Positions 14,897-55,041 of a stretch of 64,000 nt of DNA are shown piece after piece. The first letter of the stretch is position 1. Each line of letters begins with the position of its first letter. A program made the translations under genes and the position numbers. This stretch comes from Bdellovibrionota bacterium (GTDB taxonomy: Bacteria > Bdellovibrionota_B > Oligoflexia > Oligoflexales > JAWKNZ01): NCBI GenBank assembly GCA_041391425.1, contig JAWKNZ010000011.1:8743-72742 (forward strand), given 5' to 3'. The notes under the pieces are model-generated. The model did not search any database and was not told the origin of the DNA. It worked only from the letters and a program-made list of their open reading frames with translations.

Positions 14897-15058
14897 CCCG
14901 GATTCGAATTTCTAGCCGGTTGCGTCGTTGCTTCATCGTCAGGAAATCCTCATGTACCACATGTACACTGCGGTTTCCCTCCTCCTCGCGCCTAGCACCC
15001 GGCTGAACTTCGAATCTGGTGAAAATACTACAGTTTTTCAAAAAACTTCAGGTCCCGG
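14897..15058. mobile_element. Family A MITE, copy A1
   Basis: CCCGGATTCG...AGGTCCCGG flanked by direct repeat ATGCAG; between convergent rlmN and mtaB. Confidence 0.85.
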
Positions 15059-15132
15059 ATGCAGGCATGTTGAATGAGAATTAACTTGTGACTAAGTTAG
15101 GGTTTTTATGGATACTCTTTATTTTGCTCCCC

Positions 15133-16510
15133 TTAATAAGTCAAGGATGGTATTGCTAACAAGTCAAATTGGTTGGTAAAGCCTTTCAAGGTTACTTCTG
15201 ATATCATTCCAGGCTGGATCTGTTCACTGGGTTTAGATACTATATTTAAATAGTTTTTACTTTTTCCTTTTAGCCTACCAGCTTCGTCGTATTGGTGTTC
15301 CCATAGAACAGTCAAATTTTTATTAAGAAATGATCGAGCGTAAGCTCCTTGGAGTTCAGCAGCTAGCTTGCGTAACTCAGCTGCTCGAGATTTTACTATG
15401 GAGGCTTCGATATGGCCTGGCATTCTAGCTGCCGCGGTGTTCGGACGTTTCGAGTAAGGAAACACATGCAGACCATTAAGCCCAGATTGGCGGATGAACT
15501 CTACTGTCGCTGCAAATTCTAAATCCGACTCTCCTGGAAAGCCAGGGATAACGTCGGCAGTTAAATTTGCATGTGGAAAGTATCTGCGGATTAGTGTGAG
15601 GGTGCTCTCATATTCTGAGCAGTTATAGCTGCGACGCATTAACGAAAGGATACGATCATGTCCAGATTGGAGAGGTAAATGGAAATGATCACAAAAACGA
15701 TCTTTTCTTCCGCCAATACATCTAAAAGACTATTACTAACTTCCATAGGTTCTAAAGATGAGATGCGCAGCCTTTTTAAACCTTTGTTTTTAAATATCTC
15801 GCGGAGCAAATCTATAAGTCCGAATCGGTGGCTATTATCATCACCTGCTAATAAATCATCTCCGTAGTCACCAATATGGATGCCTGTAAGTACAATTTCT
15901 TTGACCCCTTCACCTATCAGCCGATTTACCTCGTCGATAATTTTGAACGGATCGACACTTGAGCTAGCCCTCGAGCATAAGGTATGAGGCAATAGCTACA
16001 AAATCCATTGCATCCATCTTGGATTTTTAAAAAGGAGCGGGTGCGTGAATCTGATTTTGCTTTGTCAAAAAAAACAGCAGAACTTTTGAAATGTCCCTGA
16101 CGATTATCTTTGACTTGATTAATTCCTTCCGGAAGTTTACCTGAAAGTTGCCTTTCTTCATGGCTCTGATTTAGCGCCTTAGATACGAAAGCTATTAGCT
16201 CACTTTTAACTTCATTAGGAACGACGCAATCGACTTCTTCAAGGGTCGCAAGTCGAGCGGATTGGGTCTGAGCATAGCAGCCGGTAATCACCCTTAGGGC
16301 ACCCGGATTTTCTCGATGATAGCGTCTGAGTAAATATCTTGCTTCTTTTTCAGCGGCATTTGTGACTGAACATGAGTTGATCACATTGACATCGGACAGA
16401 TGCGGTTGGTCTACAATAGCGTAACCTTTTGAAATAAACTGGTTTTCAATGGCTCTGGTATCATAGGTGTTAACCTTGCAACCTAGTGTTTTTATATAAA
16501 CTTTAGGCAT
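15133..16510 (-). CDS. mtaB: tRNA t6A37 methylthiotransferase, split into 3 ORFs by two frameshifts (probable sequencing errors)
   Basis: TLGCKVN, INSCSVT, ITGCYAQ, LKIQDGCNGFCSYC, GFPGES, HVFPYSKRPNT across ORFs 15926-16510, 15639-15992 and 15133-15639. Confidence 0.9.
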
Positions 16511-16707
16511 TATAGTCCTTTTTTCCCCCTAATCGAGTTGCGCTTTATTCAGCAGCAACTTATTATGCTACAATTAGCTTAGTTGCAAGCCCTCAAATTT
16601 CCTAATAAGATCCTATATATATGGGGGCAGGAAACGTTTCTCACAGGGTGGTAGAGCACCCCTTACGCAGAGATAGTAAAAGGCGGCGGCCTGGTTATGG
16701 AGATCAT

Positions 16708-18693
16708 ATGTTTGCAGATTATGGCTTTTACTTGATGTTCTTGTGTCTCATAACTAGTAGTTATGGGGTGATCGCTGCGTTAGTTTCGGCAAAGATGCGC
16801 CATCGGCGTCTATATCGATCGGCAAGAGTGGCTGCAACTCTAACCTTTGTGATGTGTTTCGTGGCTGCCTTACTGATGTGGTATATGCTTTTTACGCGTG
16901 ATTATTCTGTTAGGTATATTGCCTATAATTCCTCTAATGACCTTCCCTCATTTTATACTTTAACTGCGTTTTGGGCTGCACTCGAAGGATCACATTTTTT
17001 TTGGACGCTTTTAATTTGCTTGTTTTCATTAATAGCCCACTGGACATACTCTAAAGATAATGAGCATATCATGCCGTATGTCAGTGCCTCTACTCAGTTT
17101 ATTTTGGTATGGATGTTTTATTTGGCTGTTACTTACTCTGACCCTTTTGTGAGGATTTTTCCTGTGCCAGAGGATGGACAGGGAATGAATGCATTGCTGC
17201 AAAATCCCTATATGCCTTTTCATCCCCCATCTTTATTTACTGGCTATAGTTCACTCATTATTCCTTTCTCTTATTCAATTGCGGCTTTATGTTACGGTGA
17301 CATTACTGAAGGCTGGTTGAAGACTGTACGCAGGTGGACTCTTTTTGCCTGGATTTTTCTCACTATTGGACTATTTTTAGGAGGCCGTTGGGCCTATGTG
17401 GAGTTAGGTTGGGCTGGTTATTGGGCTTGGGATCCGGTTGAGAACTCTAGTTTTATACCGTGGCTTTTCTCTACCGCTATGTTGCATTCGTTGCAAGTGC
17501 AAGATAGGCTGGGGCATCTAAAGCGTCTGACAATTGTTCTTGCTACTTTGGCATTCTTTTTTAGCTTTTTTGGGACATTTATAACCCGCTCAGGTTTGAT
17601 AAGCTCAGTTCACTCTTTTGCGCAGTCTCCTATTGGCCCTAACTATCTCGCATTTCTGGCGCTGTTTTTATGCCTTACTATAGCTTTATATGCGGTGCGA
17701 GCACCATCAATCTTGCCCTTTGATACCGAAAAAGTCTGGGGGTTTTCTCGCGAATCAGCCTTGGTTATCACCCAGTTTTTGGTGCTTGCCTTTGCGGGGG
17801 TGATTTTTGTTGGAACTATGTATCCTATTATCTCAGAAGCCATTACCGGTGCTAGGTTTAATGTACAGGCTCCTTATTTTAACGCTTTTGCTCCGTATAT
17901 AGGATTTGGATTTATTTTGGCTATTGGTATAGGTAACCTTGTACAGTTCAAGTCTGGTAAATTAACCGGCGGAGCTAAATTGCAAATTGTAGCTGGACTT
18001 CTAGCAATCCCTTTGTCAGCTATATTTATTGTTGGTGGGGACGTTTTTCGTACTAAATCGCCGTTTGCATTAGGTGCGCAAATTGTCGGGTTTTGGATTT
18101 TGAGTTGGTGTACTATATGTCTTATTTATGATTTTTACGACCATCTCAAAAGATTGAAGTTTAATACCAAGTTACTATTAAAGCGTAATTTATCTTATTG
18201 TGGAGCCTTTGTTGCTCATATTGGTGTGCTGGTAGCGATAGCAGGATTTTTGGGTAATTATCGAGGTCTTGAAAGAGAAGTAACATTGAAGGCTGGTGAG
18301 TCGACTGAGTTGTATGGATATCAGTTTAACTTTGATGGCATTAAAATGGAACAGAATGCAAATGCAACTCATTACGCTGCTCCCTTAAAAGTGACTAAGC
18401 TAGGTAAGGTGATAGGAGAGGTTAAGGCTGCTCGCAGTAAGTATCCGACTAAGGCAGAACTTATGCACGAGGTTGGGTTAATTGGTAGCTTTTGGCATGA
18501 TATATATGCTGTGTTAGCTGATTTTGATAAAACGGATGGAGCGACAGCAACCTTTCAACTTCATATTAATCCAACAGTTCGTATTGTTTGGATTAGTGCT
18601 TTTATTATGATCTTTGGAGGTTTTCTTAGTCTATTTGATCGCCATCGCGGAGTTCGCAGCCGAGACCATGTTGCAGGTTCTTGGGAGGTTTAG
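16708..18693 (+). CDS. ccmF: Cytochrome c biogenesis heme lyase CcmF
   Basis: WAYVELGWAGYWAWDPVENSS (WWD domain), HPP, SVHSFA; GGAG before ATG 16708. Confidence 0.95.
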   Translation: MFADYGFYLMFLCLITSSYGVIAALVSAKMRHRRLYRSARVAATLTFVMCFVAALLMWYMLFTRDYSVRYIAYNSSNDLPSFYTLTAFWAALEGSHFFWTLLICLFSLIAHWTYSKDNEHIMPYVSASTQFILVWMFYLAVTYSDPFVRIFPVPEDGQGMNALLQNPYMPFHPPSLFTGYSSLIIPFSYSIAALCYGDITEGWLKTVRRWTLFAWIFLTIGLFLGGRWAYVELGWAGYWAWDPVENSSFIPWLFSTAMLHSLQVQDRLGHLKRLTIVLATLAFFFSFFGTFITRSGLISSVHSFAQSPIGPNYLAFLALFLCLTIALYAVRAPSILPFDTEKVWGFSRESALVITQFLVLAFAGVIFVGTMYPIISEAITGARFNVQAPYFNAFAPYIGFGFILAIGIGNLVQFKSGKLTGGAKLQIVAGLLAIPLSAIFIVGGDVFRTKSPFALGAQIVGFWILSWCTICLIYDFYDHLKRLKFNTKLLLKRNLSYCGAFVAHIGVLVAIAGFLGNYRGLEREVTLKAGESTELYGYQFNFDGIKMEQNANATHYAAPLKVTKLGKVIGEVKAARSKYPTKAELMHEVGLIGSFWHDIYAVLADFDKTDGATATFQLHINPTVRIVWISAFIMIFGGFLSLFDRHRGVRSRDHVAGSWEV

Positions 18694-18718
18694 AGTGCAC
18701 CTAAAGGTGGGGGAGAAA

Positions 18719-19222
18719 ATGAAAAAAACAATACGAGTTCTAATATCGAAAACCTTTGCATTGATCTTGCTAGGACATATTGGTTGGTTCGGTCATGAAG
18801 GGCTATTTGCCAGTAGCTTGGGATTTGAGGGTATGAGCGAAGAACAAATTGAGCTTTTTCAGCGTGTGGGTAACAATTTAAGATGCCCAACTTGCACTGG
18901 CCTTAGTGTTATGCAATCAGAGGCTGACTTCGCTGTGAAAATCAGAGAAGCAGCTAGAGACCAAGTTTTACAAGGAAAGTCTGAAGCGGAAATCATGACT
19001 TTTTTTATTGAAAGGTATGGGCTATGGATTTTGCGTAAGCCACCAGCCGAAGGCTTTCACGTAATGGCTTGGGGTGTGCCTATTGCCTTTGCTTTGCTGG
19101 GGGCCTTATTTCTTTGGTTTTTTGTTTGGCGTAAGCCTAAACAGGTGGACCTTGGAGGTATTCGTACGACGCAAGATATTATGCTAGAAATGGAAAATCA
19201 ATTAGCTCAGATGAGAAAATAA
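18719..19222 (+). CDS. ccmH: Cytochrome c biogenesis protein CcmH
   Basis: LRCPTC motif, ERYGLWILRKPP, C-terminal TM; directly after ccmF. Confidence 0.9.
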   Translation: MKKTIRVLISKTFALILLGHIGWFGHEGLFASSLGFEGMSEEQIELFQRVGNNLRCPTCTGLSVMQSEADFAVKIREAARDQVLQGKSEAEIMTFFIERYGLWILRKPPAEGFHVMAWGVPIAFALLGALFLWFFVWRKPKQVDLGGIRTTQDIMLEMENQLAQMRK

Positions 19223-19275
19223 AAAATGCCTTTTGTAACTTTGTTTCTTGTACATTTTGTTAAGGAGAAAAACTG

Positions 19276-19560
19276 TTGTTATTTGCTATATCGATAGGAA
19301 TGGCTACCCTCCTTTTGCTATTAGCTCCTTTTTTTTACGGAAAAGGTGGTGTGTTAATGGCAGGAGCAGCAGAGCATAATCAGGAAGTTATTGAGAGGCA
19401 GAAAAAAGCCATCTTAAAAAGATATATATTGGACGAAAAGGCAGTAAAAGAGGGCACTATATCTAAAGTAGAATGGGAAAGCAAAAAACAGTTTTTAACA
19501 AATCGTTATTTGGATGCTTCTCGTCGTCTTGATTATTTACAGCATCATAAAAGTGATTAG
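19276..19560 (+). CDS. Small membrane protein, CcmI N-terminal-like
   Basis: N-terminal TM then EGTISKVEWESKK helix; position in the ccm cluster. Confidence 0.5.
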   Translation: MLFAISIGMATLLLLLAPFFYGKGGVLMAGAAEHNQEVIERQKKAILKRYILDEKAVKEGTISKVEWESKKQFLTNRYLDASRRLDYLQHHKSD

Positions 19561-19670
19561 AGATTTTGATAGATTTATAGTGGAGCTAGGTTACAGAACC
19601 TTCTGATATCCAAGTTCTCATGATGTTGAGAAAAAAAATTCGAATTATGCATTTGTAATTCCCTTTCTTT

Positions 19671-20375
19671 TTGAAGCGATTCGAGGATTATATGCACCAG
19701 TTTATTTTAAAGAGTTTTATTTGTACTACCTTATCAGTATTATATTTTTCATTACCAGTATTGGCATCTGAAAGTGAAAACATACAAATTGCTGAGCGAC
19801 ATGTTTTCGTCTTGCACTCAGGTCCAGACGTATTATGGGGAACATATATGTTTGGCGTAAATAATATGGGATCTGAAGCTACACTGTTTTCGGACAGAAT
19901 CAATCTACCCAGTGGAATTACTGATTTTGCGCCTCAAGAAGGTTTGAGCAATGAAGAGTTGAAAGCATCTCCTGAGGGAGGCCTAGTGTTTGAGAAAGAA
20001 TTTCCACCAGGTGTGACCTTGATAGCGATTGGATTCAAGCTTCCTGCGCAATTGGGAAAAGCAAGCCTACAGTTAAAATTTCACTATGATATTTCTGAAA
20101 TGAGCATATTAACTAAGGATGATAGTTTAAATCTTGAATTTGTTGGTGTGCCAATGCAGCTAGGTGATAATACAATAATGTCAAATGAGACATATAGAAC
20201 ATTTAAGTCTTCGCAAAAAATTGCTAAAGGGCAGCAACTCGAAGTCGCAGTGTCTAATATAGCAGGTAGGGCAAATTTCTGGCTTGTTGGTTCTATCTTC
20301 GCTGCTTTACTCCTTTTGCTGGCTTCTATATTTACCCTTAAAACAAAAGAGTCAATAGAGGTTGCAGAATTGTAG
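19671..20375 (+). CDS. Exported protein with C-terminal membrane anchor (hypothetical, ccm-cluster associated)
   Basis: Signal peptide VLA-S, beta-rich body, C-terminal TM; true start probably MHQF at 19692. Confidence 0.6.
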   Translation: MKRFEDYMHQFILKSFICTTLSVLYFSLPVLASESENIQIAERHVFVLHSGPDVLWGTYMFGVNNMGSEATLFSDRINLPSGITDFAPQEGLSNEELKASPEGGLVFEKEFPPGVTLIAIGFKLPAQLGKASLQLKFHYDISEMSILTKDDSLNLEFVGVPMQLGDNTIMSNETYRTFKSSQKIAKGQQLEVAVSNIAGRANFWLVGSIFAALLLLLASIFTLKTKESIEVAEL

Positions 20376-20423
20376 ATTTGTTTTAAGGGATTTTTTATTT
20401 TCTAATTATTAAAGTTTATATCT

Positions 20424-20633
20424 ATGTTAGGTTTTGTACTCAGAATTTTTATCTATTCGCTTTTGTTTTACTTAATTGTGAAAAAATTAAGTGTTGTATT
20501 GACCTCTTTAGTAAGTGATAAGTCTGCAAAGATGAATGGGAAAATTCCCTCATCATATGACGGTGATGGTGTTATTGAGATTTGCCCAAAATGTGGTCAT
20601 GAGCTTTCAAAAGGGCATAGATGCTCTTTGTAA
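20424..20633 (+). CDS. Small membrane protein with C-terminal Zn-ribbon-like motif
   Basis: N-terminal TM, CPKCGH...HRC. Confidence 0.5.
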   Translation: MLGFVLRIFIYSLLFYLIVKKLSVVLTSLVSDKSAKMNGKIPSSYDGDGVIEICPKCGHELSKGHRCSL

Positions 20634-20783
20634 TCAAATAGAATGTGCTGGTATATCCCCTTAAGTGAGTCATTATAGCCGTGCTTTAATAAAGTAACGG
20701 TTAATCTTTCTGAATTAATCTTTTAAAATAGTATAAGGCTGGGTTTTAATATTTGATCTATCTTCAAATTTAAGGAGGATCAT

Positions 20784-21611
20784 ATGAATAGGCAGTTTGT
20801 TAATTTTATTATGATAGCTTTCTTCTTTTCAACGGGGATTACATCGCGCAGCTTTTCACAAGACCTTTTTTCATGGCCAAGGCCATTGGTTGTCGGAAGT
20901 ATAGGAGACTCTATTTCCAGGGCTACAAATTCGACTGTTTTTGGGGAAGTGCCATTTTCAAGTTGGGCGACAGGTGGAGACACTCGCGTTTTTTCGCAGG
21001 CTGCAAGGCTTCAGGAGGAAACAGGATCTCTTGTTTTTACCTATAATTATGCTCGATCAGGCGCGCAGATGCGGCATTTAAGAAAGCAAGCCCAGAAGTT
21101 GCTTAAAAGAAAGCCTGATTATGTAACGATATTGATTGGTGCTAACGATTTATGTTCTTGGAAGCAAAATAATACGACTCAGTTGCAGGCATTTGAATCT
21201 GAGTTGCGAGGTACCTTAGATGATTTAACGACCTCTTCTCCTAAAGTAAAAATTATTTTAAGTGCTATACCTGACATGCTAAGGATGTATGAGCTGGGTA
21301 AACAAAAAGGTTGTAGCATGATGTGGAAGGTTTTTCGCTTTTGCTCACCTTTACTTGGAAAAGATCGTACTGAGATGCAAAGGCTCCAGTTTTATGACCG
21401 TTGGATAGACGCTAATAATTCTCTCGCATCGATTGCCGATGAGTATCCGAATAATGTTTTTTTTGCTGAATCGATAAAAGATTACGAGTTTTCTAAAGAT
21501 GATATCGCTGTTAGAGACTGCTTTCATCCCTCTATTAAAGGGCAAAGAGCATTATCGGAGCAGATATGGAATGCTGGATGGTTCAAGGCATTTCAAGAAA
21601 ATTTACCTTAA
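20784..21611 (+). CDS. Secreted SGNH/GDSL hydrolase
   Basis: GDSI, GAND and DCFHPS blocks; AGGAGG SD. Confidence 0.9.
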   Translation: MNRQFVNFIMIAFFFSTGITSRSFSQDLFSWPRPLVVGSIGDSISRATNSTVFGEVPFSSWATGGDTRVFSQAARLQEETGSLVFTYNYARSGAQMRHLRKQAQKLLKRKPDYVTILIGANDLCSWKQNNTTQLQAFESELRGTLDDLTTSSPKVKIILSAIPDMLRMYELGKQKGCSMMWKVFRFCSPLLGKDRTEMQRLQFYDRWIDANNSLASIADEYPNNVFFAESIKDYEFSKDDIAVRDCFHPSIKGQRALSEQIWNAGWFKAFQENLP

Positions 21612-21630
21612 TATAAAAAGTAAGGTAAAC

Positions 21631-21662
21631 GCTCTAGTTGCATTATCTGTGACTAGAGCTTT
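21631..21662. terminator. Probable intrinsic terminator between the convergent GDSL gene and era
   Basis: GCTCTAGTTGCA-ttatc-TGTGACTAGAGC followed by TTT. Confidence 0.45.
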
Positions 21663-21714
21663 AGCTTAAGCATCATTAGGGAAAATGAGTATTTATTAGG
21701 TTATTTTTAACCCT

Positions 21715-22716: not shown

Positions 22717-22937
22717 ATCATAAGAGGAATTTTATATAGACTAATTTGTCTTGAGTCTATGATCTGACTATTTTTATATCACATCGATGGAAGAATCAAT
22801 CAAATTTTTAGTCCATTATATGATAGATAGGAGTAGTTTGATGGTAACCCCTTTGACTTTAAGGTGGTTTTTCTTGCCAAAGCTGACAGCTGCGAGTAGG
22901 CTATTTCATTATTATTTATAATAAAGGAGGTAGTATT

Positions 22938-23361: not shown

Positions 23362-23366
23362 GTTTA

Positions 23367-23468
23367 GGGCGTGTTGACGTTTCATTTCCTACTACGAGCC
23401 CAAACCCTTCCTAGCTGCGACTTTCAAGTATTTGGCTCTCGCTACGAAAATGAAACGTCAACACGCCC
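23367..23468. mobile_element. Family B MITE, copy B1 (internally deleted, 102 bp)
   Basis: 21-bp TIR GGGCGTGTTGACGTTTCATTT at both ends, TA on both flanks; centre lost between AAACCCTT microhomologies. Confidence 0.9.
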
Positions 23469-33774: not shown

Positions 33775-34065
33775 CCCGTATCCGAGCTTTCTAGCCGGTT
33801 GCGTCGTTGTTTCGTCGTCAGGAAATCCCTCATGTACCAATATGCACTGCGGTTTCCTCCTCCTCGCGCCTAGCACCCGGCCGAATAAATCCGGTGAAGA
33901 CACATCCCGTATCCGATTTTCTTTACGGAATGTGGCGTTGCTCGTCGCTTGCAAAATCCTCTGCGTACCAATATGTACACTGCGGTTTCCCTCCTCGCGC
34001 CTAGCACCTGGCCGAATTTCGAATCCGGTGAAAATGCTACAGTTTTTCAAAAATTTAGATCCCGG
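33775..34065. mobile_element. Family A composite (truncated copy plus variant copy starting at 33906), A2
   Basis: Two head-to-tail cores inside a single ATTTAA direct-repeat pair. Confidence 0.8.
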
Positions 34066-37762: not shown

Positions 37763-38646
37763 TTACAATCCTGCTTCTTGCAGTTCCGTCACTGCTTTTT
37801 TCTGTTCTTTTGAAAGCGATTTAGGCATATCTAATTCAACCACAGCAAAGAAGTCACCACGACTTTGACCTTGGCCGGGAGCCTTGTATCCGAGCCCTTT
37901 TAAGCGGACTTTAGTCCCCGCTGACTCCTGCAGGTATTTTGATCTTTTTTACTCCCTGTGGTGTCTCAATTGAGGCTGAACATCTAGTAGTGCATCAGAT
38001 AGTTTGAGTGGCAAGGCAGCTTCAATATTATTTTCCACTCGGCGGTAACGTTCATGTGAGACGATGTTTACGATTACATAGAGGTCGCCATTAGAGCCAC
38101 CATTGGGGGAGGGAGCTCCTTTACCAGCGACTCTAAGCCTACCGCCATTTTTGATGCCGGCTGGAATTCTGATTTTTAAATCTCGCCGAGTTCCATCGTT
38201 AAGCTGAAAGGATATTTGCCTTTCTCCACCATCATAAGATTCTTGAAAGCCGATATCGACGCGGTACTCGACATCTTGCCCTTTGTGAACTCTGGTGCCA
38301 CCGCTAAAACCTCCACCGCCAAAACCCCGCCGAATAAATTGGCGAAAATACTATTGCCGCCAAGATCGACTCGCGAAAAATAGAATTGAAATCTGCCCTC
38401 GAAAGATATCGTCAGTTGAATATCGTTGGCCGAAACCGAGGCTCCATAGGTGTCATATTCTTGTTTTTTTTGCTTGTCCGATAAAACAGCATAGGCTTCG
38501 CTAATATTTTTGAACTTTTCTTCGGCTTCTTTATCTCCCTTGTTGCGGTCGGGGTGGTATTTTAACGCCAGGCTTCTGTAGGACTTTTTGATTTCATCAT
38601 CAGACGCATTGCGGTCGACACCCAGAATTTTATAATAGTCAGCCAA
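37763..38646 (-). CDS. DnaJ-class (CbpA-like) chaperone, several frameshifts
   Basis: [32 protein letters not shown]-terminal fragments LRVAGKG, GDLYV, LKGLG. Confidence 0.85.
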
Positions 38647-38774: not shown

Positions 38775-38937
38775 CCGGGATCTGGAATTTTTTGAAAAAC
38801 TGTAGTATTTTCATCGGATTCGAAGTTCGATCGGGTGCTAGGCGCGAGGAGGCGGGAAACCGCAGTGTACATGTTGGTACATGAGGATTTCCTGGCGACG
38901 AAGCAACGCCGCAACCGGCTAGAAATTCGGATCCGGG
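38775..38937. mobile_element. Family A MITE, copy A3 (opposite orientation to A1)
   Basis: CCGGGATCTGG...GGATCCGGG flanked by direct repeat ATCTTAC. Confidence 0.88.
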
Positions 38938-41467: not shown

Positions 41468-41748
41468 TCATACTGCGTTACGCCTAAAAAACATTTGTCG
41501 CTGTACTAGGGCGTGTTGACGTTTCATTTCCTACTACGAGCCAAATCCTTGAGTCACAACGTTGTCAGGGTTTCAAAATTATCCTCAATGTACATTTAGT
41601 ACACCTCCGGTAATTTTTGAAACCCTTCCTAGCTGCGACTTTCAAGTATTTGTCTCTCGCTACGAAAATGAAACGTCAACACGCCCTAAAGGTACTATCT
41701 CCTCATTTTTCTAGGCAAGCCTTGTCTGATAGGTTTTGCTCTCCTTAA
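41468..41748. mobile_element. Family C element, copy C4, interrupted by B3
   Basis: Reverse-complement match to C2 on both sides of B3 (ATACTGCGTTACGCCTAAAAAACATTTG...CCTTGTCTGATAGGTTTT). Confidence 0.75.
41509..41686. mobile_element. Family B MITE, copy B3 (full length, nested in C4)
   Basis: 21-bp TIRs; CTA|element|TAA. Confidence 0.92.
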
Positions 41749-41752
41749 TAGC

Positions 41753-46064: not shown

Positions 46065-46228
46065 CCCGGATCCGAATTTCTAGCCGGCTGCGGCGTTTGC
46101 TTCGTCGTCAGGAAATCCTCATGTACCAACATGTACACTGCAGTTTCACTCCTCCTCGCGCCTAGCACCCGAGCGAACTGAATCCGGTGAAAATACTCTA
46201 CAGTTTTTTCAAAAATTTCAGATCCCGG
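46065..46228. mobile_element. Family A MITE, copy A4
   Basis: CCCGGATCCG...AGATCCCGG flanked by direct repeat ATAGAT. Confidence 0.9.
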
Positions 46229-46702: not shown

Positions 46703-46861
46703 CCGGGATCTGAAATTTTTTGAAAACTGTAGTATTTTCACCGGATTCGAAGTTTGCTCGGGTGCTAGGCGCGAGGAGGTGGGAAACCGCAGTGTATGTT
46801 GCTTGGCAAAGGGATTTTCTGACGATGAAGCAACGCCGCAACCATTTCATCCGGATCCGGG
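46703..46861. mobile_element. Family A MITE, copy A5 (variant core)
   Basis: CCGGGATCTG...GGATCCGGG flanked by direct repeat ATAATAAAA. Confidence 0.85.
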
Positions 46862-46940: not shown

Positions 46941-46965
46941 ACTGTAAAATAGATTTGACATGTAA

Positions 46966-47127
46966 CCGGGATCTGAAATTTTTTGAAAAACTGTAGTATT
47001 TTCAGCGGATTCGCAGTTCGCTTAGGTGCTAGGCGCGCGGAGGTGGAAACCGCAGTGTACATGTTGGTACATGAGGACTTCCTGACGACGAAGCAACGCC
47101 GTAACCGGCTAGAAATTCAGATCCGGG
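46966..47127. mobile_element. Family A MITE, copy A6
   Basis: CCGGGATCTG...AGATCCGGG flanked by direct repeat ATGTAA. Confidence 0.9.
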
Positions 47128-47261
47128 ATGTAAATTGACTGTAGAGTTAAGGAGTTTCTCTGAGATTGTAGGTACGTGAAGGCATATGGGCGTATAAATA
47201 TAAGTTTGTGGATTAAACTAGTTTTAGATCAATGCAAATAATTTAAGTGTAAGGGTTCAAG

Positions 47262-47567: not shown

Positions 47568-47640
47568 TATTCTTCATAAAAATTATTAAATTCATGAGGT
47601 ACTATGCTTTCTTATTATAAAGCCTATTCTTTTTAATGTT

Positions 47641-48768
47641 GTGTTGAGAAAGTGCCGGATGAATTTGAAGAACCAAATGAGATCTATTTTTATAGTTCAT
47701 GAAACCTCAGGGCGGCCATATTACAAAGGGATTGAAGAGTTAGGCAAAGAAAAAAATTTCGAAGTTGTTTATATAGAATCAAGCGTCCTTCGTCTTACAA
47801 TAGCAAATATTGTAAAGCGGGATTGGAAGAGAGGGTATTCGAAGCAAATTTTATCTAATCTTCTTTTCCGAATCAAAGTGCCTTTTTTTAAAAATAGGCT
47901 TATTTTGTTACCGATGGCCCCTTTTGATTTTCGCATGATTTGGTATCGGCTACTGTGCCGAAAAAACAATGTTATATATCATACATCCTGGCCTTATTGG
48001 GATGGCAGTAATGTACCTAGATGGTCAATCTTTCCGTTAAGGTCATTTGTAATGAAAGCTTGGCGAAAGTTTTTTGCTGAGGGGGCGAAATGTATTGTAA
48101 GTGTATTGCCTCTTACTTGTAAATCTATTTTACAGAATTTTTATTGCTGTGTACCTTGCCATTCTATACCACATGCACACGAGTTTAGTGTTCGAGATAA
48201 AATGAAGCTGTCTTTGCAAGATAGAGATAAGCCTCTCAAAATTTTATTTGTTGGCAAACTAATTAGTGAAAAAGGCTTAGAAAATCTTGTGAAGATATCC
48301 AACCTTTTACCTTTATCGGAGAAAATACAGTTGACAATTGTCGGCGATGGTAAGGATAAAAATCTAATCCAGCCAGCATTAGACGTGGGTGCGGTTTGGT
48401 TAGGAGCGGTATCAGATAGAGCAGAATTAAAAAAAGTTTTTGAGTGTCATGATGTTTTGTTAGTTCCTTCGCAAAGAAAAAAAGGCTGGGAGGAGCTTTT
48501 TGGTATGGTTATAATAGAAGCAATGTCTCAAGGTTTAACTGTTATAGCTAGTAATCATATTGGACCAGAAAGCATTGTAAACGAGTCTACAGGTTATATC
48601 TTAGAAGAAAGCCAGCCTGAAGCTTGGGTTGAAGCCATTTTATCATTACATACTAATCGCGGTAATTTATTAAAGCTGCAAGAAGCTGCCATTGCGGAAA
48701 GCCATAAGTATACCACTGCAGTTATAAAAGATGCATGGTGGGAGGTACTTAAAGATTATTTGATCTGA
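47641..48768 (+). CDS. GT4 family glycosyltransferase
   Basis: LFVGKLISEKG, VGDG, EELFGMVIIEAMSQG; start may be 47659 or 47677. Confidence 0.88.
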   Translation: MLRKCRMNLKNQMRSIFIVHETSGRPYYKGIEELGKEKNFEVVYIESSVLRLTIANIVKRDWKRGYSKQILSNLLFRIKVPFFKNRLILLPMAPFDFRMIWYRLLCRKNNVIYHTSWPYWDGSNVPRWSIFPLRSFVMKAWRKFFAEGAKCIVSVLPLTCKSILQNFYCCVPCHSIPHAHEFSVRDKMKLSLQDRDKPLKILFVGKLISEKGLENLVKISNLLPLSEKIQLTIVGDGKDKNLIQPALDVGAVWLGAVSDRAELKKVFECHDVLLVPSQRKKGWEELFGMVIIEAMSQGLTVIASNHIGPESIVNESTGYILEESQPEAWVEAILSLHTNRGNLLKLQEAAIAESHKYTTAVIKDAWWEVLKDYLI

Positions 48769-48813
48769 TAGAAAAATATCAATTTAGCTAAGTATTTTTG
48801 CTATTAGGGTTAG

Positions 48814-49551
48814 TTATGAGTTGGCAAAACTCATAATCAAACCTATAACTCCACCAAACACCCCCCCCCATACTACAAGCCAACCTAAATGCTTATGAAT
48901 CATTTCTTGGATAATCTCTTTTACCATTTTAGGGGTGAGTTCTTCGAGCCGTGTGTCGACAATTCCCTCTATTTTAGTAAGAATAACATCATTGCCGTTT
49001 TGGCCGAAAGATTGGCTGAGTTTTTCTTGAAATTCGTCTGAGTTTCCTATTTCAAACAGTATTTCTTTCATTTTTTCTTCAAAAGGAGATCTTAGTGGCG
49101 CTAAAGCTTCATGGCCGCCCATCATTGCTAGCATACCTCCCATTGGAGAGGTCAGGACGACATCAGTGAGCCCTCGGTAGACTTTTTCATAATCTATCGA
49201 TGCTATAATACCTCTAAATCCGTCTAAATTTTCTGAGTTTTCATAGGCGTTATTGTCAGAAAATTTCATCTCTTTAAAAATTCTTTCGAGATTTTCAGTG
49301 TTGAAAAACTGATTCATCATCAAATGCTTTATGCCACTTTTAAATTCTTCGAAACGGTTAGGAATGACTCCTGAGCCATATAATCCAGGAATTTTCTCGA
49401 AAAGCATATGGACAGCAAGCCAATTGGTAATAGCTCCAGAAAAGGCGAAATAGCCGATTGAAGACAAGTGCTCTCCGGTACGACCAGGTATAGCGTAGCT
49501 GGCTATTATACAAATAAGTGCAACTAAATTAGTAAGAAGAGATTTATTCAT
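48814..49551 (-). CDS. DUF445 family membrane protein
   Basis: SGAITNWLAVHMLFEKIPGLYGSGVIP; HLGWLVVWGGVFGG. Confidence 0.85.
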   Translation of the reverse strand: MNKSLLTNLVALICIIASYAIPGRTGEHLSSIGYFAFSGAITNWLAVHMLFEKIPGLYGSGVIPNRFEEFKSGIKHLMMNQFFNTENLERIFKEMKFSDNNAYENSENLDGFRGIIASIDYEKVYRGLTDVVLTSPMGGMLAMMGGHEALAPLRSPFEEKMKEILFEIGNSDEFQEKLSQSFGQNGNDVILTKIEGIVDTRLEELTPKMVKEIIQEMIHKHLGWLVVWGGVFGGVIGLIMSFANS

Positions 49552-49587
49552 TTTAAAGTTTTGTGTTTGACTTTCGGGATTAAAGAT

Positions 49588-49995
49588 TTACTTGCTGCCT
49601 ACCTTGCAGCCTGTATTAACGGATCGCATGATGTCTTCTCTTGGAATCAAATCTGTAGGCAAGGAAGCACGGCGTATATTGGCTCTATGAAGCACAGCTC
49701 CGCGCAACTTGGAATAATCAAGGTCGGCACCTTCTAAATTTGCACCAGAAAAATCTGCTCCCTCCAAATTCGCATTCCAAAGGGAGGCATCTCTGAGGTC
49801 AGCGTTGCGAAAGATGGCGTCCTTCAAATTTGCATAGGAGAAGTTGCTGTTCTTGCAGTTACAGTCAGAAAAGTCGACTTTGATAAGGTTGGCCTTTCTC
49901 ATATCCATTTCAGCTAAGGGCATTTTTTCAGCTAATAACTCCAAGACTTCTTTTCTTGTGAGTGTTTGTGTCTTTGGCTGTTTGTCCTTATTCAT
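49588..49995 (-). CDS. Pentapeptide repeat protein
   Basis: A(N/D)LxxA repeats: ANLKDAIFRNADLRDASLWNANLEGADFSGANLEGADL. Confidence 0.88.
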   Translation of the reverse strand: MNKDKQPKTQTLTRKEVLELLAEKMPLAEMDMRKANLIKVDFSDCNCKNSNFSYANLKDAIFRNADLRDASLWNANLEGADFSGANLEGADLDYSKLRGAVLHRANIRRASLPTDLIPREDIMRSVNTGCKVGSK

Positions 49996-50181
49996 TGCAT
50001 CTCCTCGCTAATGGTGCGTATTCCAACCTGGCAGAATTACCACAGTTATTTTGAAAATCAAAGAATTGTTTTTTGAATTTTGATAGGGGCTATTAGAGTT
50101 ATAGCTAAGGTTTAAACACTTTGAGGGCTGATGTTAGGCTGTGCATGAATGAATAAGGGGTCGAGTAGAGAGCTTTAGCTC

Positions 50182-51042
50182 CTAATAAGTCGCTTGCTTT
50201 ATAGCTTGAATGACAGCCTTTACTGCCTGTGTTTTAGTCAAGTCTGCTCGATGGATAAGGCAAACTTGATCGCTAAATGTTGGTGCACTCTTAGATAGCA
50301 ATGATAGATTATTGCTTTGCCCAGCTTTGGCTACGCGTTCAGGGAGAATGGCAACACCAATGCCACTAGAGGCAAGATTTTTTATGACTTCCAAATTAGA
50401 TGAATGGATATGCCGCATAAATGTATTGGAGAATTTTGGGTTTTTCTTTAATTTTTTCAATAAATTAGAGCTTTGTTGGAGGTTTGGGTCGTAAATTAAA
50501 ATATTCTTTTCGAAACTATTTGATGTAAGCTTCCAAAACCCAACTTGGTCTTGACATAGCTTATGAATCACTAATTCTGGATGATTGACCGGATTGACGA
50601 CTATTCCTAGGTCAAGCCTGAGGCTGATAACCTCTTCTGCTATTTTTCTAGATAGGTCATGCTGTAGATTGATGGTTAACTCACTATTTTCAATGAGGAG
50701 TTTGGGTAGGAAACGGTTCAATGTATAAAGTGCTACGGAAGGGTGGCAGCCAAGTGAAACTTCTCCTGATATTTCATAGTGTGATTTGAGAGTATCAGCC
50801 CGAAGCTGTTTCCAATTTTCTAATACAAGGCGACTGCCATTGAGAAATTTTCTACCAGCTTGGGTTAGTTTTACTCCATTTTTGAATCGCGTTAGGAGTG
50901 GAACGCCAATATTTTCTTCCAATCTTTTTACGGAGAGGCTAATGCTAGGTTGAGTAAGGCCAAGGCGCTCGGCGGCTCTAGAAAGATTTTCTGTCTTTGA
51001 AACTTCAATGAAATTAACAATATCTGTCGAGGAAGGTAGCAT
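50182..51042 (-). CDS. LysR family transcriptional regulator
   Basis: NLSRAAERLGLTQPSISLSVKRLEE...LTQAG; divergent from the dioxygenase gene. Confidence 0.93.
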   Translation of the reverse strand: MLPSSTDIVNFIEVSKTENLSRAAERLGLTQPSISLSVKRLEENIGVPLLTRFKNGVKLTQAGRKFLNGSRLVLENWKQLRADTLKSHYEISGEVSLGCHPSVALYTLNRFLPKLLIENSELTINLQHDLSRKIAEEVISLRLDLGIVVNPVNHPELVIHKLCQDQVGFWKLTSNSFEKNILIYDPNLQQSSNLLKKLKKNPKFSNTFMRHIHSSNLEVIKNLASSGIGVAILPERVAKAGQSNNLSLLSKSAPTFSDQVCLIHRADLTKTQAVKAVIQAIKQATY

Positions 51043-51197
51043 AAATTTTTCCTATCCCATTCATGTATATTATTAATTTATCATCTGGCTCAGAAATGAT
51101 CTATGATGCCTCGATCGTTTAGGGATCTTACAGAGGCTGTCTGCCATCAATTTGAGCTTACGTAAGTTACTTCTATTTTACTTCAAAGGAGAAGAGC

Positions 51198-51863
51198 ATG
51201 GCAAATCATGACATTATGAACCGGAGAAAGTTGTTACAAGGGATTTCGGCATTATCACTTGGCTCGGTTGGAGCAAGTGCGTTATCGCAAGCGCTGTGTA
51301 AAATTCCCACAGCGCAGCAGACTGAGGGGCCTTTTTATCCAGTGGAGGAGCAGGAGGATGAGGACTTCGATCTGACTCGTGTTGCTGGGCATAGAGAAGG
51401 TGCTAAAGGAGAAAAAATTAAGGTGAGAGGTTTAGTGCAAGATCAAAATTGTCTACCGGTTGCTGGAGCCTTAGTTGAAGTTTGGCAAGCTTGCCATTCT
51501 GGGCGTTATAACCATCCTTCTGACCCTAATACTGGTGTCGAATTAGACCCAAATTTCCAATATTGGGGAAGGGCTATTAGTGCTGAAGACGGATCTTATC
51601 AATTTTTAACCATCCGCCCGGGGCAGTATCCAGCTTCTGATACTTGGATCCGTCCATCGCACATACATTTTAAGATACAAAAACGCGGATATAGAGAGTT
51701 AACAACCCAAATGTATTTTGCTGGTGACAGATACAATGCTAGTGACTTAATTTTGAATGAGTTGACTGACGCAGAAAAAGATGCCGTTATTGTAGATTTT
51801 CAAGAAGATGCTAACGAAACTTATCCAGTTGGAACATTCGATATTGTAATAGAAAAGTTGTAG
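51198..51863 (+). CDS. Intradiol ring-cleavage dioxygenase (protocatechuate 3,4-dioxygenase beta-like) with Tat signal
   Basis: NRRKLL twin-arginine leader; EGPFY, EVWQA, GRYNH, PGQY, RPSHIH, TTQMYF. Confidence 0.88.
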   Translation: MANHDIMNRRKLLQGISALSLGSVGASALSQALCKIPTAQQTEGPFYPVEEQEDEDFDLTRVAGHREGAKGEKIKVRGLVQDQNCLPVAGALVEVWQACHSGRYNHPSDPNTGVELDPNFQYWGRAISAEDGSYQFLTIRPGQYPASDTWIRPSHIHFKIQKRGYRELTTQMYFAGDRYNASDLILNELTDAEKDAVIVDFQEDANETYPVGTFDIVIEKL

Positions 51864-52026
51864 GCGGGATCTGAAATTTTTTGAAAAACTGTAGTATTTT
51901 TATCGGATTCGAAGTTCGGCTGGGTGCTAGGCGCGAGGAGGAGGGAGACCGCAGTGTACATGTTGGTACATGAGGATTTCCTGACGACAAAGCAACGACG
52001 CAACCGGCTAGGAATTCGGATCCGGG
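51864..52026. mobile_element. Family A MITE, copy A7
   Basis: Flanked by direct repeat TTGTAG, which includes the dioxygenase stop codon. Confidence 0.9.
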
Positions 52027-52119
52027 TTGTAGACTTTCTTTATGCTGGTTTTTTCATAGGATGATGAACAAAAAATCAGATATTGAAAGGAGTAAGTTTT
52101 GGATATATGAAAGATACTA

Positions 52120-52298
52120 GGGCGTGTTGACGTTTCATTTTCGTAGCGAGAGACAAATACTTGAAAGTCGCAGCTAGGAAGGGTTTCAAAAATTACCGGA
52201 GGTGTACTAGATGTACATTGAGGATAATTTTTAAAACCCTGACAACGTTGTGACTCAAGGGTTTGGCTCGTAGTAGGAAATGAAACGTCAACACGCCC
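52120..52298. mobile_element. Family B MITE, copy B5
   Basis: Perfect 21-bp TIRs; CTA|element|TAG. Confidence 0.93.
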
Positions 52299-52327
52299 TA
52301 GATGGAATTGATGGCGCGGAGGGTAAT

Positions 52328-53173
52328 ATGCCAGTCTTACATAGGATTCAACTTGATCCGATTGTTTCTCGAGCATTGGAAGAAGATTGGGGGCATGGAG
52401 ATTGGACGACTGATCTTTGTGTTGCAGAAGACTCATATGCGACTGCTAAAATTATTACAAAACAGCCTAATATTGTTGCTTCTGGAGTAGAAGTTGCTAT
52501 CAGAGTGTTTGAAAAGGTAGATCCGGATTTAAAAATTGTTCAGCATGCTGAAAACGGGCAAGAGTTGAAGGCTGGTGATTTGATTATAGAGATTGCTGGT
52601 AAAAGCCGTTCGATTTTGAAGGCTGAGCGTGTTGCCCTAAATTTTTTAGGACGGCTTTCTGGGATTGCAACTGAAACAAAAAAATATGTTCGACTTTTAG
52701 AAGGAACAGAGACACAGTTGCTTGACACTCGTAAAACGACACCTGGCCTTAGGTTGCTTGAAAAATCTGCGACAGTTGTCGGTGGCGCCCGTAATCACAG
52801 GCTTTGTCTGACAGATGGTGTCATGGTCAAAGAAAATCATATTCGTGCAGCCGGTGGTATAACTGAAGCATTGAATCGCTTAGTGGAAAGCCTACCTCCT
52901 ACATTGAAAATAGAAGTTGAAACCACAAACTTGGATGAGGTTCAAGAGGCTATTGAAGCAGGTGCTGATTTGATAATGTTGGATAATATGTCTATTTCTG
53001 AGATGGCTTTGGCCGTTAGAACGGTAAGAGGAAGGGCATTATTAGAAGCATCTGGCAATATTACTCTAGATAATTTACGTCAGGTTGCAGAAACTGGGGT
53101 AAATTTTGTTTCTACGAGTGCCATTTTGCATTCTTCAAAGTGGGCTGATTTGAGTTTGTTGTTTAATGTCTGA
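52328..53173 (+). CDS. nadC: Nicotinate-nucleotide pyrophosphorylase (carboxylating)
   Basis: AERVALN, DTRKTTPGLR, NHR, KENH, EVE, MLDN, EASG; GGAGGG SD before ATG 52328. Confidence 0.95.
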   Translation: MPVLHRIQLDPIVSRALEEDWGHGDWTTDLCVAEDSYATAKIITKQPNIVASGVEVAIRVFEKVDPDLKIVQHAENGQELKAGDLIIEIAGKSRSILKAERVALNFLGRLSGIATETKKYVRLLEGTETQLLDTRKTTPGLRLLEKSATVVGGARNHRLCLTDGVMVKENHIRAAGGITEALNRLVESLPPTLKIEVETTNLDEVQEAIEAGADLIMLDNMSISEMALAVRTVRGRALLEASGNITLDNLRQVAETGVNFVSTSAILHSSKWADLSLLFNV

Positions 53174-54773
53174 ATATTCCCATATTAAAACGCATAAATT
53201 TGCAGAGCTGGACTCTACTTCAGATGAAGTGCAGTCGTTGCTTTCGCAAGGCATTAATCCTCCTTTCGTCGTCTGGGCTTCCAAGCAGTTAAAAGGAAGG
53301 GGTCGTAGAGGTAGGAGTTGGCAGAGTGGTGAAGGAAACTTATTTTTAACATTTGCACTTCCTCCCCATTCTTCAAAGACGATTGAAATTGGTTTGTTGC
53401 CAATAGCTGCTGCTGCAATCGTGGCCCAGTGGATTAAGTCTTTTTATTCAATTTCTGTCAGAATTAAATGGCCCAATGATTTAGTCTTTCAAGGTAGAAA
53501 GCTTGGAGGGATTCTCTGTGAATCCTCAATTCAGGGTAAAGAGTGGGGAGATATTTCAATCGGTATAGGATTGAATTTAAATACTGCTCCCGACAATACG
53601 GGGTTAGCTTATCGGTGCACTTCTATTCGAGGCATTTTAGCTGATGACTCAGTTTTTTTAGACGTTGAAGAGGCTAGAGATTCTTTTATCGAATACTTTT
53701 ATTCATCTTGGCTTTCGTTAGATCAACAAAAAATTATAGCTGCCTACTCTGACTTTGCTTTACCGGCAGGCCAACCTGTTTACTTTTGTCAGAAAAAAGA
53801 ATTGTTTTTAACGTCTGGGCTTGAAATTGATGGTTCTTTGCGGCTGGAGTCAGCTGTAAATCCTGGGGAAATTATACCTTTATCTAGTGTAAACCATGAA
53901 TGTGAATGGCTTTACATTGATTACATCAAATCCAATGACCTGCATGAAGAGGCTTTTGGTGTTCCCAACTTGCCTTTTCTTTGTCTTGATATTGGTAATA
54001 GCTTAATTAAAATTTTTTCTTTTGAATCGTGGAAAAATGAGTTTCCTTCCTTTGTTTTTGCTGTTTCTCCACAAGAATTGCCTCGTAAAAAACTTGTTGA
54101 ATTGTTTCCTACAAAAGTTTTATCTTTTTTGGAAAAGATGCCTGGATGGCCTGTTTATTGTTCGAGCGTAAGCCCAGAGGCTTATCAATGTGCTAAATTA
54201 TTTTTTAGTGATGCCGGCGTACGCTTAATTGATGTTGAGAAAAATCCTGTATTTTACCAAGATGGAGCTTACGAGCTTAGTGATTTGGGCATTGATCGCT
54301 TAGCGCTTTTGGAGGGGTGGTTGCGTTGTTTATCTCCGCAGGAGCGTCGAAGAAACGATGTTCTTGCTTTTGTGATTTCTGCAGGGACTGCGACCACAGT
54401 AGATGTGATTTCTAACGAAGGTTACCACTTTGGCGGTTATATTTTACCTGGTATGCAGCTAATATTGGATGCGTTGGCGGATAGTACGGGACTTTTACCT
54501 GAGATTGAATTGCGTACCATGACGGATGTTTTATGTTTTAAGAGGAGAATTGCTTCCAATACACTTATGGCCATGCTTGACGGTGCACTGTTGATGACTG
54601 TTGGTGGAATCGAGAAAATTATCAAAGAGGTTTGTTCGGAGCTAGGAAAACAGTACAGAGAAACTAAAGTTGTCGTCACTGGAGGCAATGCTGCTTTTTT
54701 GGAAAAAGAGCTGAAGGGTAGTCTCTGCAACGATCTTATGCCTAGTGGGATACGCACTTTATGCGGCTTATAA
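53166..54773 (+). CDS. Bifunctional biotin-protein ligase / type III pantothenate kinase fusion (BirA-CoaX)
   Basis: N-half QLKGRGRRGRSW, KWPND, KLGGILCE; C-half LDIGNS, LGIDR, AGTATTVD, GGYILPG, TGG. Confidence 0.88.
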   Translation: MSEYSHIKTHKFAELDSTSDEVQSLLSQGINPPFVVWASKQLKGRGRRGRSWQSGEGNLFLTFALPPHSSKTIEIGLLPIAAAAIVAQWIKSFYSISVRIKWPNDLVFQGRKLGGILCESSIQGKEWGDISIGIGLNLNTAPDNTGLAYRCTSIRGILADDSVFLDVEEARDSFIEYFYSSWLSLDQQKIIAAYSDFALPAGQPVYFCQKKELFLTSGLEIDGSLRLESAVNPGEIIPLSSVNHECEWLYIDYIKSNDLHEEAFGVPNLPFLCLDIGNSLIKIFSFESWKNEFPSFVFAVSPQELPRKKLVELFPTKVLSFLEKMPGWPVYCSSVSPEAYQCAKLFFSDAGVRLIDVEKNPVFYQDGAYELSDLGIDRLALLEGWLRCLSPQERRRNDVLAFVISAGTATTVDVISNEGYHFGGYILPGMQLILDALADSTGLLPEIELRTMTDVLCFKRRIASNTLMAMLDGALLMTVGGIEKIIKEVCSELGKQYRETKVVVTGGNAAFLEKELKGSLCNDLMPSGIRTLCGL

Positions 54774-54878
54774 ATAAGTATGGATAGATGTTTTCTGAGG
54801 AATCGATACTGTAATTGATTGTCTCATCTCATTGAGCTTTCGTATTTATTAGAAGTAAATATTGCCCTTTGTATGTAT

Positions 54879-55041
54879 CCCGTATCCGAATTTCTAGCCG
54901 GTTGCGTCGTTGCTTCGTCGTCAGGAAATCCTCATGTACCAACATGCACACTACGGTTTCCCTTCTCCTCACGCCTAGCACCCGGCCGAACTTCGAATTC
55001 GTTGAAAATACTACAGTTTTTCAAAAAATTTCAGATTCTGG
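54879..55041. mobile_element. Family A MITE, copy A8
   Basis: CCCGTATCCG...AGATTCTGG flanked by direct repeat ATGTAT. Confidence 0.88.

Follow-up and report, generated by a model that had tools for sequence, protein, structure and literature searches.

A probable IS1380-mobilised MITE whose rod-shaped interior carries an RPE-1-type core

Family A, a 163-base non-coding element, occupies eight loci in the window (the whole stretch of DNA analysed, 64 kb), all with their own target duplication. It is probably a type II MITE with IS1380 ends, moved in trans by an IS1380 transposase, with a rod-shaped interior of RPE-1 type that does not derive from an insertion sequence (IS). The eight loci and eight flanking repeats of an earlier sequence-only reading were all found again where it had placed them, the end repeats are imperfect as it had described (15-17 bp), and six duplications are indeed of 6 bp, those of the remaining two loci being of 7 bp and 9 bp. 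The family A units number nine, since the locus 33775-34065 holds two. These loci, the sub-parts of the reference copy and two copies of a comparison element (family B) are as follows:

14897..15058, + strand, family A copy of 162 bp, 6-bp duplication ATGCAG
33775..34065, + strand, head-to-tail dimer of family A, a single ATTTAA duplication enclosing both units
33775-33905 and 33906-34065, + strand, truncated and full subunit of the dimer, respectively
38775..38937, - strand, family A copy of 163 bp, 7-bp duplication ATCTTAC, core at 38859-38888
46065..46228, + strand, family A copy of 164 bp, 6-bp duplication ATAGAT
46703..46861, - strand, degenerate family A copy of 159 bp, 9-bp duplication ATAATAAAA, core decayed
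46966..47127, - strand, family A copy of 162 bp, 6-bp duplication ATGTAA
51864..52026, - strand, family A copy of 163 bp, 6-bp duplication TTGTAG
54879..55041, + strand, family A copy of 163 bp, 6-bp duplication ATGTAT, reference for the sub-parts
54879..54895, + strand, left terminal inverted repeat of the reference copy
54928..54957, + strand, apical core of the reference copy, of the type ATCCTCA-YGTAC-loop-GTACRCTSCGGT, two bases deviating here
54987..55002, + strand, internal inverted repeat of the reference copy, predicted partner of the left end, closing a rod of ~120 nt
55003..55041, + strand, tail of ~40 bp in the reference copy, differing between genomes
55025-55041, + strand, outer right terminal repeat of the reference copy, which the target duplication adjoins
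41509..41686, + strand, family B copy with IS5-type ends and TA duplication, core at 41581-41611
52120..52298, - strand, family B copy, core at 52195-52225

The TTGTAG duplication of the copy at 51864..52026 takes in the stop codon of a dioxygenase ORF lying upstream (51198-51863).

In the genome carrying the window (G000), 173 HMM segments made up 140 family A loci (0.59% of the genome; 2.2 per 64 kb), the window being ~3.7 times denser than the genome average; the 'hundreds of copies' extrapolated from the window overshoots this count. Duplications were scored at 116 two-ended loci, 24 of the 140 having failed the two-end test and been left unscored. Just as every window locus bears the copy-specific duplication previously claimed for it, an exact duplication of at least 6 bp was present genome-wide at 84 of the 116 two-ended loci (2.1 with flanks randomly re-paired) and missing at 32; of the 116, 78 have a duplication of 6 bp and 2 one of 5 bp. 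The 6-bp duplications follow the rule N-T-N-N-A-N, with T at position 2 in 78/78 and A at position 5 in 76/78, while their first base is A in only 34/78. That seven window duplications begin with AT is true on the + strand, but the actual rule is this palindromic one (76/78), the AT-start impression having arisen because such a target was read on the + strand.

Arrays of two to four family A units are enclosed by one duplication, and the copy at C4:117316 (C4, C8 and C19 are contigs of G000) is inserted in another repeat whose other copies are uninterrupted, with the aligned site single (24 BLAST hits), that is, a paralogous empty site. No orthologous empty site was found for six loci in four public runs (X1-X4), which appear to represent the same population as G000; their contigs run into the same insertions and no joint bypasses a family A copy. 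By eye, no inner inverted repeat serving as an end was seen at the 14 loci without the outer right end. Copies average 94.7% identity to the consensus, so that family A need not be active today.

Family A has a palindromic, rod-like interior, and its stems co-vary across three genomes: in 18 copies, 96.3% of cells were paired, against 49% at most in slid controls, and four pairs had changed on both sides. Folding is better than in shuffles on both strands (z -2.3 and -3.1), with a weak asymmetry between the two (z -5.5 vs -5.8, p=0.05). The core was counted 225 times in G000 (124 in family A, 101 in family B or a B-like variant, and nowhere else). Family B, with 112 loci in this genome, is similar to family A in copy number and has the same core; it differs in one extra base per arm, in unrelated arms and in its TA duplication. 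Its ends, GGGCGTGTTG(A/C)C, match those of a resident 855-bp IS5 element (C19:51097-51951; NF033580 above cut-off), and it is an IS5-type MITE not previously described. It is unlikely that one A::B composite was amplified, since its A parts differ and B occurs in both orientations.

A core model built from 50 non-A sequences matched all nine units of the window and, of the five IS loci searched with it, none. The same apical core is met in repeats of many phyla, Rickettsia RPE-1 among them, and four Rickettsia-titled loci obtained with the core pattern all scored 56-74 bits against TIGR01045 (cut-off 30; 4/4). This search pattern was derived from family A and itself fixes the internal loop; two motifs outside it are conserved across phyla (37/90 and 28/90 sequences vs 7.2 and 2.0 when shuffled), while arms and ends are unrelated among the cross-phylum elements, for which automatic end-finding was noisy and used only to show the diversity of ends. 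Enterobacterial loci, without assignment to a named repeat, were also among the matches; family A may resemble the ERIC and RSA elements of enterobacteria. The sequence-only reading had not picked up that the core is shared across phyla, that a third inverted repeat lies inside the element or that multimers occur.

Pairing in the core is almost purely Watson-Crick and without strand preference (89/90 sequences have C-G or T-A as the Y..R pair; mismatches beside the core are G-T in 5 vs A-C in 5). We would give close to even chances to its being a self-standing selfish module, a small and conserved hairpin whose internal loop is sequence-specific, found across phyla, that adopts the ends of whichever transposase is available and of which RPE-1 is one branch; such a superfamily would be defined by its functional core and not by its ends. 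More tentatively, and somewhat short of even, the core may be a folded single-strand structure, acting in DNA or on either strand more probably than as a one-strand RNA, that helps short elements to spread or persist regardless of their ends. It seems unlikely that the core is instead functionless, an old inherited sequence whose paired changes reflect template-switch correction between the palindrome arms. Such correction would produce the same near-pure Watson-Crick pairing without strand preference, but it leaves unpaired bases unconserved, whereas the unpaired internal loop (itself fixed by the pattern) and the two motifs are kept across phyla and the core motifs persist while arms and ends are unrelated.

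Turning to the ends, in most copies the left one is the same over 15/15 bp as the downstream end of an IS1380 resident in G000, and the right one matches IS1380 ends at 12-13/15, differing from both at 2-3 positions. The two 16-bp family A ends, with at most two mismatches, were present at only 5 + 5 sites of G000 outside family A, of which the only ones within a larger element are the IS1380 ends. The partner transposase is an intact 444-aa ORF at G000:C4:332756-334087, on a separate contig from the window, matching NF033539 (IS1380) with 237.8 bits (cut-off 180) and PF13701 with 153.6 bits; its residues D133, D212 and E339 lie in DDE-type motifs and are invariant across 13 aligned relatives. 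The earlier statement that no transposase is present held for the window ORFs scanned (26/63); this matching one lies elsewhere in the genome. Beyond the ends, where the matches are the terminal repeat itself, MITE and IS1380 showed no similarity below E=0.4, and the interior is unrelated to IS1380. A second IS1380 resides on C8. None of the resident IS1380 copies is flanked by a matched duplication (the range in the IS1380 family is 4-5 bp), and both bases of the T/A target signature were present at 4/10 resident IS1380 ends. The depth of IS1380 was ~22 in X1 and ~17 in X2, compared with ~2-5 on unique window DNA, with several different flanks; this is only a hint of multiple copies, because contig depth is not copy number.

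The target signature was also sought in other genomes, at 40 IS1380-relative loci (40 non-redundant end-motif matches). Their flanks had A two bases out in 30/40 and T five bases out in 20/40 (backgrounds of 0.29 and 0.25), with both in 15/40 (p=5e-8, kin and false matches included), the corresponding values for family A flanks being 219/232 and 206/232. It is because these related IS1380 flanks show the same T/A spacing that IS1380 is the likely partner. Only 1/22 two-ended relatives with both flanks (L069) had an exact 6-bp duplication, and a second relative (L046) had one by a looser rule.

A single-transposase query of genome contigs found no relatives, BLAST found family A in G001 only among 41 genomes (besides two weak core matches), and the left-end pattern found it in 3/131 genomes. 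Full copies had 6-7-bp duplications in 9/13 cases in G001 and 7/10 in G046, the latter containing 27 left ends and no assembled IS1380 in its 540 contigs. By inspection, the IS1380 remnant of G001 is like the C8 element of G000 and unlike the C4 one. A diverged A-type family in G033/G038, with 6-7-bp duplications in 8/21 copies, has ends containing ATCCGAAAAATT / ATCGGAAAAATT, sequences that the ends of the IS1380 loci L354 and L353 of the same genomes contain as well. MITE ends thus track local IS1380 ends across genomes.

The transposase-mediated insertion postulated from the sequence is supported. As for the families proposed with it, IS1380 fits by ends and target signature, IS982 had no match above cut-off in G000, and the resident IS1634 element has neither a detectable terminal repeat nor a MITE-like end; the resident IS5 and IS4-like elements were rejected as partners, their ends being unrelated. 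We consider it improbable that another transposase (IS982, IS1634, ISNCY or an element lost in assembly) moves family A and that the IS1380 likeness is incidental. The 6-bp duplication does exceed the 5 bp given for IS1247 in a table of PMC3281130, the resident IS1380 copies lack matched duplications and G046 has the MITE with no assembled IS1380; against this stand the 15-bp identity to an IS1380 end, with no other G000 element having such ends, the failure of the IS982, IS1634, IS5 and IS4-like candidates, the T/A flank signature of IS1380 relatives and the variation of MITE ends along with local IS1380 ends.

Under IS1380 mobilisation, to which the directly observed copies, duplications, target rule, end identity and intact transposase ORF belong, the C4 DDE transposase would bind the two outer ends of family A and cut the target with a 6-bp stagger, repair of which would yield the duplication. 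The interior was observed to lack IS homology, to have co-varying stems and to contain a core that other elements also carry; this rod may have begun as a bare ~120-nt form (positions 3-123) and then acquired a ~40-bp tail bearing a second IS1380-like end.

Considered only as a MITE, family A is ordinary. Type II prokaryotic MITEs have ends in common with an IS and an interior that is not (PMC10969869, section 2.2), examples being QMITE2 of Coxiella and Chunjie of Geobacter; family A is like them in being non-coding, <500 bp and intergenic, with terminal inverted repeats, a target duplication, a stable stem-loop and tens to hundreds of copies, but unlike them in its IS1380-like partner (the main text of PMC10969869 mentions IS1380 0 times), third internal inverted repeat, arrays of 2-4 units per duplication and cross-phylum core. 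With the IS1380 family (IS1247, ISEcp1, ISPme1) it shares ends that start with CC and a matching DDE transposase (NF033539), whereas it has no IS coding remnant and its duplication is the 6-bp N-T-N-N-A-N instead of 5 bp as in IS1247. That 78/116 duplications are of 6 bp and 2/116 of 5 bp points to a 6-bp subgroup; should the core be a module of the kind proposed above, the IS1380 branch would mark such a 6-bp-target subgroup. Alternative downstream ends are described for ISPme1 and ISEcp1 in PMC9330008, and their use would explain family A multimers moved as one unit. Compared with Rickettsia RPE-1 (TIGR01045), the apical core and rod shape are the same, but there is no relation between the arms or between the ends, 163+6 bp is no multiple of three and, by rough gene calls, none of the 116 two-ended loci was seen to lie in frame within a long gene; three family A translations matched neither the TIGR01045 RPE1 peptide (0/3) nor any other NCBIfam family.

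The usual description of MITEs is of insertion sequences that have decayed and are defined by their ends. Here, one genome holds two families with ends from unrelated transposase families and a common core that is found in neither IS, and this core is also in the long-unexplained palindromic elements of Rickettsia. The intact candidate transposase, the clear target rule and the paired element B together make the mover of RPE-type elements and the role of the core testable. Neither family A nor the shared core, nor any MITE driven by IS1380 and having a 6-bp target, was described in the papers found by a search that left most subscription papers, the original RPE papers and ISfinder outside.

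Retention of family A as a host regulatory RNA, a stabiliser or terminator of neighbouring mRNAs like ERIC in Yersinia, is very doubtful: although convergent-gene spacers are enriched for it (33/114 vs 15.6% of spacer DNA, p=4e-4, rough gene calls), both strands out-fold shuffles and ERIC hairpins are said in PMC2267715 to regulate adjacent genes, the spacer bias is explained by avoidance of promoter regions, orientation bias is not significant, a promoter/terminator scan of one copy was at chance level with no terminator-like site, Rfam gave no match at gathering score in the window and a best E of 1.4 around one copy, and stop-codon overlap is at background. The lack of orientation bias noted previously roughly holds, with 37 copies opposite vs 22 in the same direction between co-directional genes (p=0.07), and p=0.6 relative to gene ends within 100 bp. 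Targeting of stop codons was likewise rejected, duplications overlapping stops in 3/116 cases vs a 2.5% background. The RNA runs X5 and X7 shared only 6-7% of words. By the rough gene calls, 21/116 family A loci overlap an ORF; 20 of these ORFs are short (90-160 codons) and one is a longer gene, overlapped at its start.

All eight family A loci of the window (non-coding MITEs of ~163 bp), together with the direct repeats that the sequence-only reading had reported beside them, proved real on rechecking, the locus at 33775-34065 being a dimer. An HMM trained on 110 long copies recovered 173 segments in 140 loci across the genome (Bdellovibrionota bacterium GCA_041391425.1, here G000; 4.12 Mb in 36 contigs), representing 0.59% of it. 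Exact duplications flank the two-ended loci (n = 116) at 78 (6 bp), five (7 bp) and one (9 bp), with 2.1 expected when flanks are re-paired at random. The rule N-T-N-N-A-N is obeyed by 76 of the 78 6-bp targets, and there is no preference farther out. Plain monomers (86) average 94.7% identity to the consensus, a divergence suggesting that the burst is mostly old; comparison with public contigs reveals small indel errors in the G000 assembly, so that the apparent decay of copies is inflated. At window positions 38324, 38368, 38395, 38437 and 46023, the contigs of two or three public runs share the same single-base insertions, which probably mark such errors, and some short window ORFs, e.g. 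a 156-aa DnaJ ORF, may thus be artefacts.

Family A is built as follows:
positions 1-17, left end
between left end and internal inverted repeat, palindromic body
positions about 109-124, internal inverted repeat
3' of the internal inverted repeat, tail of 40 bp
outer right end, site of the target duplication

In the predicted fold, the left end base-pairs with the internal inverted repeat, which closes a rod of ~120 nt with the tail free outside it. An identical 163-bp layout occurs in G001, a genome of the same family as G000 (about 78-80% identity), and in G046, from another family, with 6-7-bp duplications at 9/13 and 7/10 full copies respectively (taken from 19 and 20 fetched). A diverged version in G033/G038 shows such duplications at 8/21 copies, some end calls being doubtful. 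When 18 copies from three genomes were compared, 96.3% of rod-stem cells were paired (maximum 49% in slid controls) and four pairs were altered on both sides, the three lineages amounting to about four events. A 33-bp mini-element at G000:C10:106760, hardly more than both family A ends, has ATTTAT on each side.

The two ends, sought across G000 outside family A, gave ten sites in all (five for each end), where the sole larger element was a 1,842-bp IS, matched at its ends. The copies of this resident IS1380 are:
C4:332455-334296, intact 444-aa ORF that scores 237.8 bits with the IS1380 model (threshold 180)
C2:297843-299880, frameshifted in the assembly

The downstream end of the C2 copy is identical to the family A left end over 15 bp; beyond its ends, family A shows no match to the resident IS1380, whose transposase has its closest named homologues in Oligoflexus and Pseudobacteriovorax (37-38% identity), pointing to a host that is probably in Oligoflexia. 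Related IS1380 elements in other genomes and in metagenomes provided 40 end-motif matches at 40 loci, a set with kin and some false matches in it. There, an A stands two bases out in 30/40, a T five bases out in 20/40 and both in 15/40, against backgrounds of 0.29 for A and 0.25 for T. Family A shows the same spacing, from which a target of 6 bp follows. An exact 6-bp duplication flanks one of the relatives (L069), and the drifted MITE ends of G033/G038 recur at local IS1380 loci. Four observations count against this partner: matched duplications were absent at the resident copies of G000 and at 21 of 22 two-ended relatives, the G046 assembly contains no IS1380, and the IS1247 duplication is listed as 5 bp in an entry of PMC3281130. 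The missing pairs could reflect one-ended transposition and the collapse of multicopy elements during assembly. We consider family A quite probably a type II MITE that is mobilised by an IS1380 subgroup with 6-bp targets, its RPE-1-type core not being derived from the IS. Three partners had been proposed from the sequence alone: IS1380 is supported by ends and flank signature, IS982 gave no G000 match above cut-off, and IS1634 elements, as well as the IS5 and IS4-like elements of G000, have ends that do not match.

A second, divergent IS1380 (G000:C8:10695-12080, L015; 39% identity to the C4 transposase; ends of CCCAAATGTGAAATT type) is a possible second partner. Isolated or degenerate IS1380 ends at G000:C2:46251, C7:96730 and C4:332455 adjoin a recombinase-like ORF and tRNA-like sequence (both by eye), an arrangement that resembles fragments of decayed islands.

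More than one family A segment lies at 20 loci. In 15 of these, 2-4 units follow one another head to tail, and a single intact duplication encloses the array at 11 of the 15. Two junction types recur, one with 2-bp microhomology and one at an N-T-N-N-A-N site within the tail, the latter suggesting copy-into-copy insertion. By analogy with ISPme1 and ISEcp1, for which PMC9330008 reports alternative-end use, one copy would insert into another, after which the stretch from the first left end to the next right end would move. Head-to-tail arrays of rods bearing the core (the apical hairpin) occur elsewhere in the phylum (G038:C23:124583-124912, G016 (L302), G024:C47 and G078:C62), so it may be the rod, and not the IS1380 ends, that gives rise to arrays.

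The empty-site comparison that the sequence-only reading had proposed yielded no orthologous site over six loci in four public runs, which bear the same insertions and appear to come from one population, and gave one paralogous case. The copy at C4:117316 sits within a third kind of repeat, family C. Other family C copies, represented by 24 BLAST hits, cross the junction without the insertion, and there the aligned target occurs once. Family C has at least 24 copies; the one in the window (about 41468-41750) contains a family B copy.

Family B, the second MITE (112 loci in G000, about 179 bp, TA duplication), matches a resident 855-bp IS5 element (G000:C19:51097-51951) at its ends. Its window copies are:
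23367-23468, family B
30136, family B
41509-41686, family B
44664, family B
52120-52298, family B

Family B occupies one TA in the family A tail at nine loci, in both orientations (seven after dropping two C30 copies with flanks common to C4 copies).

The rod apex carries the core motif ATCCTCA-YGTAC-loop-GTACRCTSCGGT, matched exactly by at least 123 stretches in GTDB genomes (titles among the matches listed: Chlorobium, Bacillus, Rickettsia, Xanthomonas, enterobacteria, Bacteroidales, Nitrospirota, Desulfobacula and others) and by 22 viral-contig stretches; family A ends occur at only one (L159) of the 123 matches listed. Pattern-independent tests used 90 non-redundant sequences from 115 with enough flank. 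Three pairs adjacent to the pattern are complementary in 84/90, 86/90 and 65/90, all four pair types being present, and two further motifs outside it recur in 37/90 and 28/90 (shuffles, 7.2 and 2.0). The surrounding arms pair at -44.5 kcal/mol with their own partners versus -24.8 when swapped, and the Y..R pair is Watson-Crick in 89/90. A relaxed pattern found 225 cores in G000, of which 124 lie in family A, the other 101 in family B or a variant resembling it, and none elsewhere. What this locus contributes is one core that is joined, within a single genome, to the ends of two resident elements whose transposases are identified. A covariance model trained on 50 sequences from outside family A, gathered by a family A-derived pattern so that its match to A is partly circular, matches all nine family A window units (E 3e-17 to 5e-3), weakly matches three family B copies (E 0.01-0.07) and finds nothing in the five IS loci searched. 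It matches 44/131 genomes of the phylum, mostly as bare 110-130-nt rods (27 loci, by inspection).

Fold and core resemble those of RPE-1, the Rickettsia palindromic element (TIGR01045), but family A is not a member, since peptide and in-frame tests were negative: the peptide, above cut-off in four Rickettsia-titled core matches, is not encoded by family A. No description of family A was found in the literature covered (mainly open-access, outside the original RPE papers and ISfinder). The variable length of the loop, the conservation of unpaired bases and the lack of a strand preference lead us to favour the core as a folded single-strand element of use to the MITE itself; the rival readings are passive correction between the arms and a function as host RNA. 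By rough gene calls, copies are intergenic, enriched in convergent-gene spacers (33/114, p=4e-4) and depleted in divergent ones (22/114, p=0.02). Their orientation is not significantly biased, in agreement with the sequence-only reading; stop-codon targeting was rejected, none being detected. This placement fits promoter avoidance better than a strand-specific RNA role.

Elsewhere in the window, about four tandem 46-bp REP-like units (9150-9366) directly follow ORF 8085-9131, and similar tandem palindromes lie near G000:C10:109050. A 9-bp unit is repeated about 12 times (9948-10054) in the 3' end of a 1167-aa Ig-domain ORF (9881-13384, minus strand), and 53166-54773 encodes a biotin ligase domain fused to a type III pantothenate kinase.
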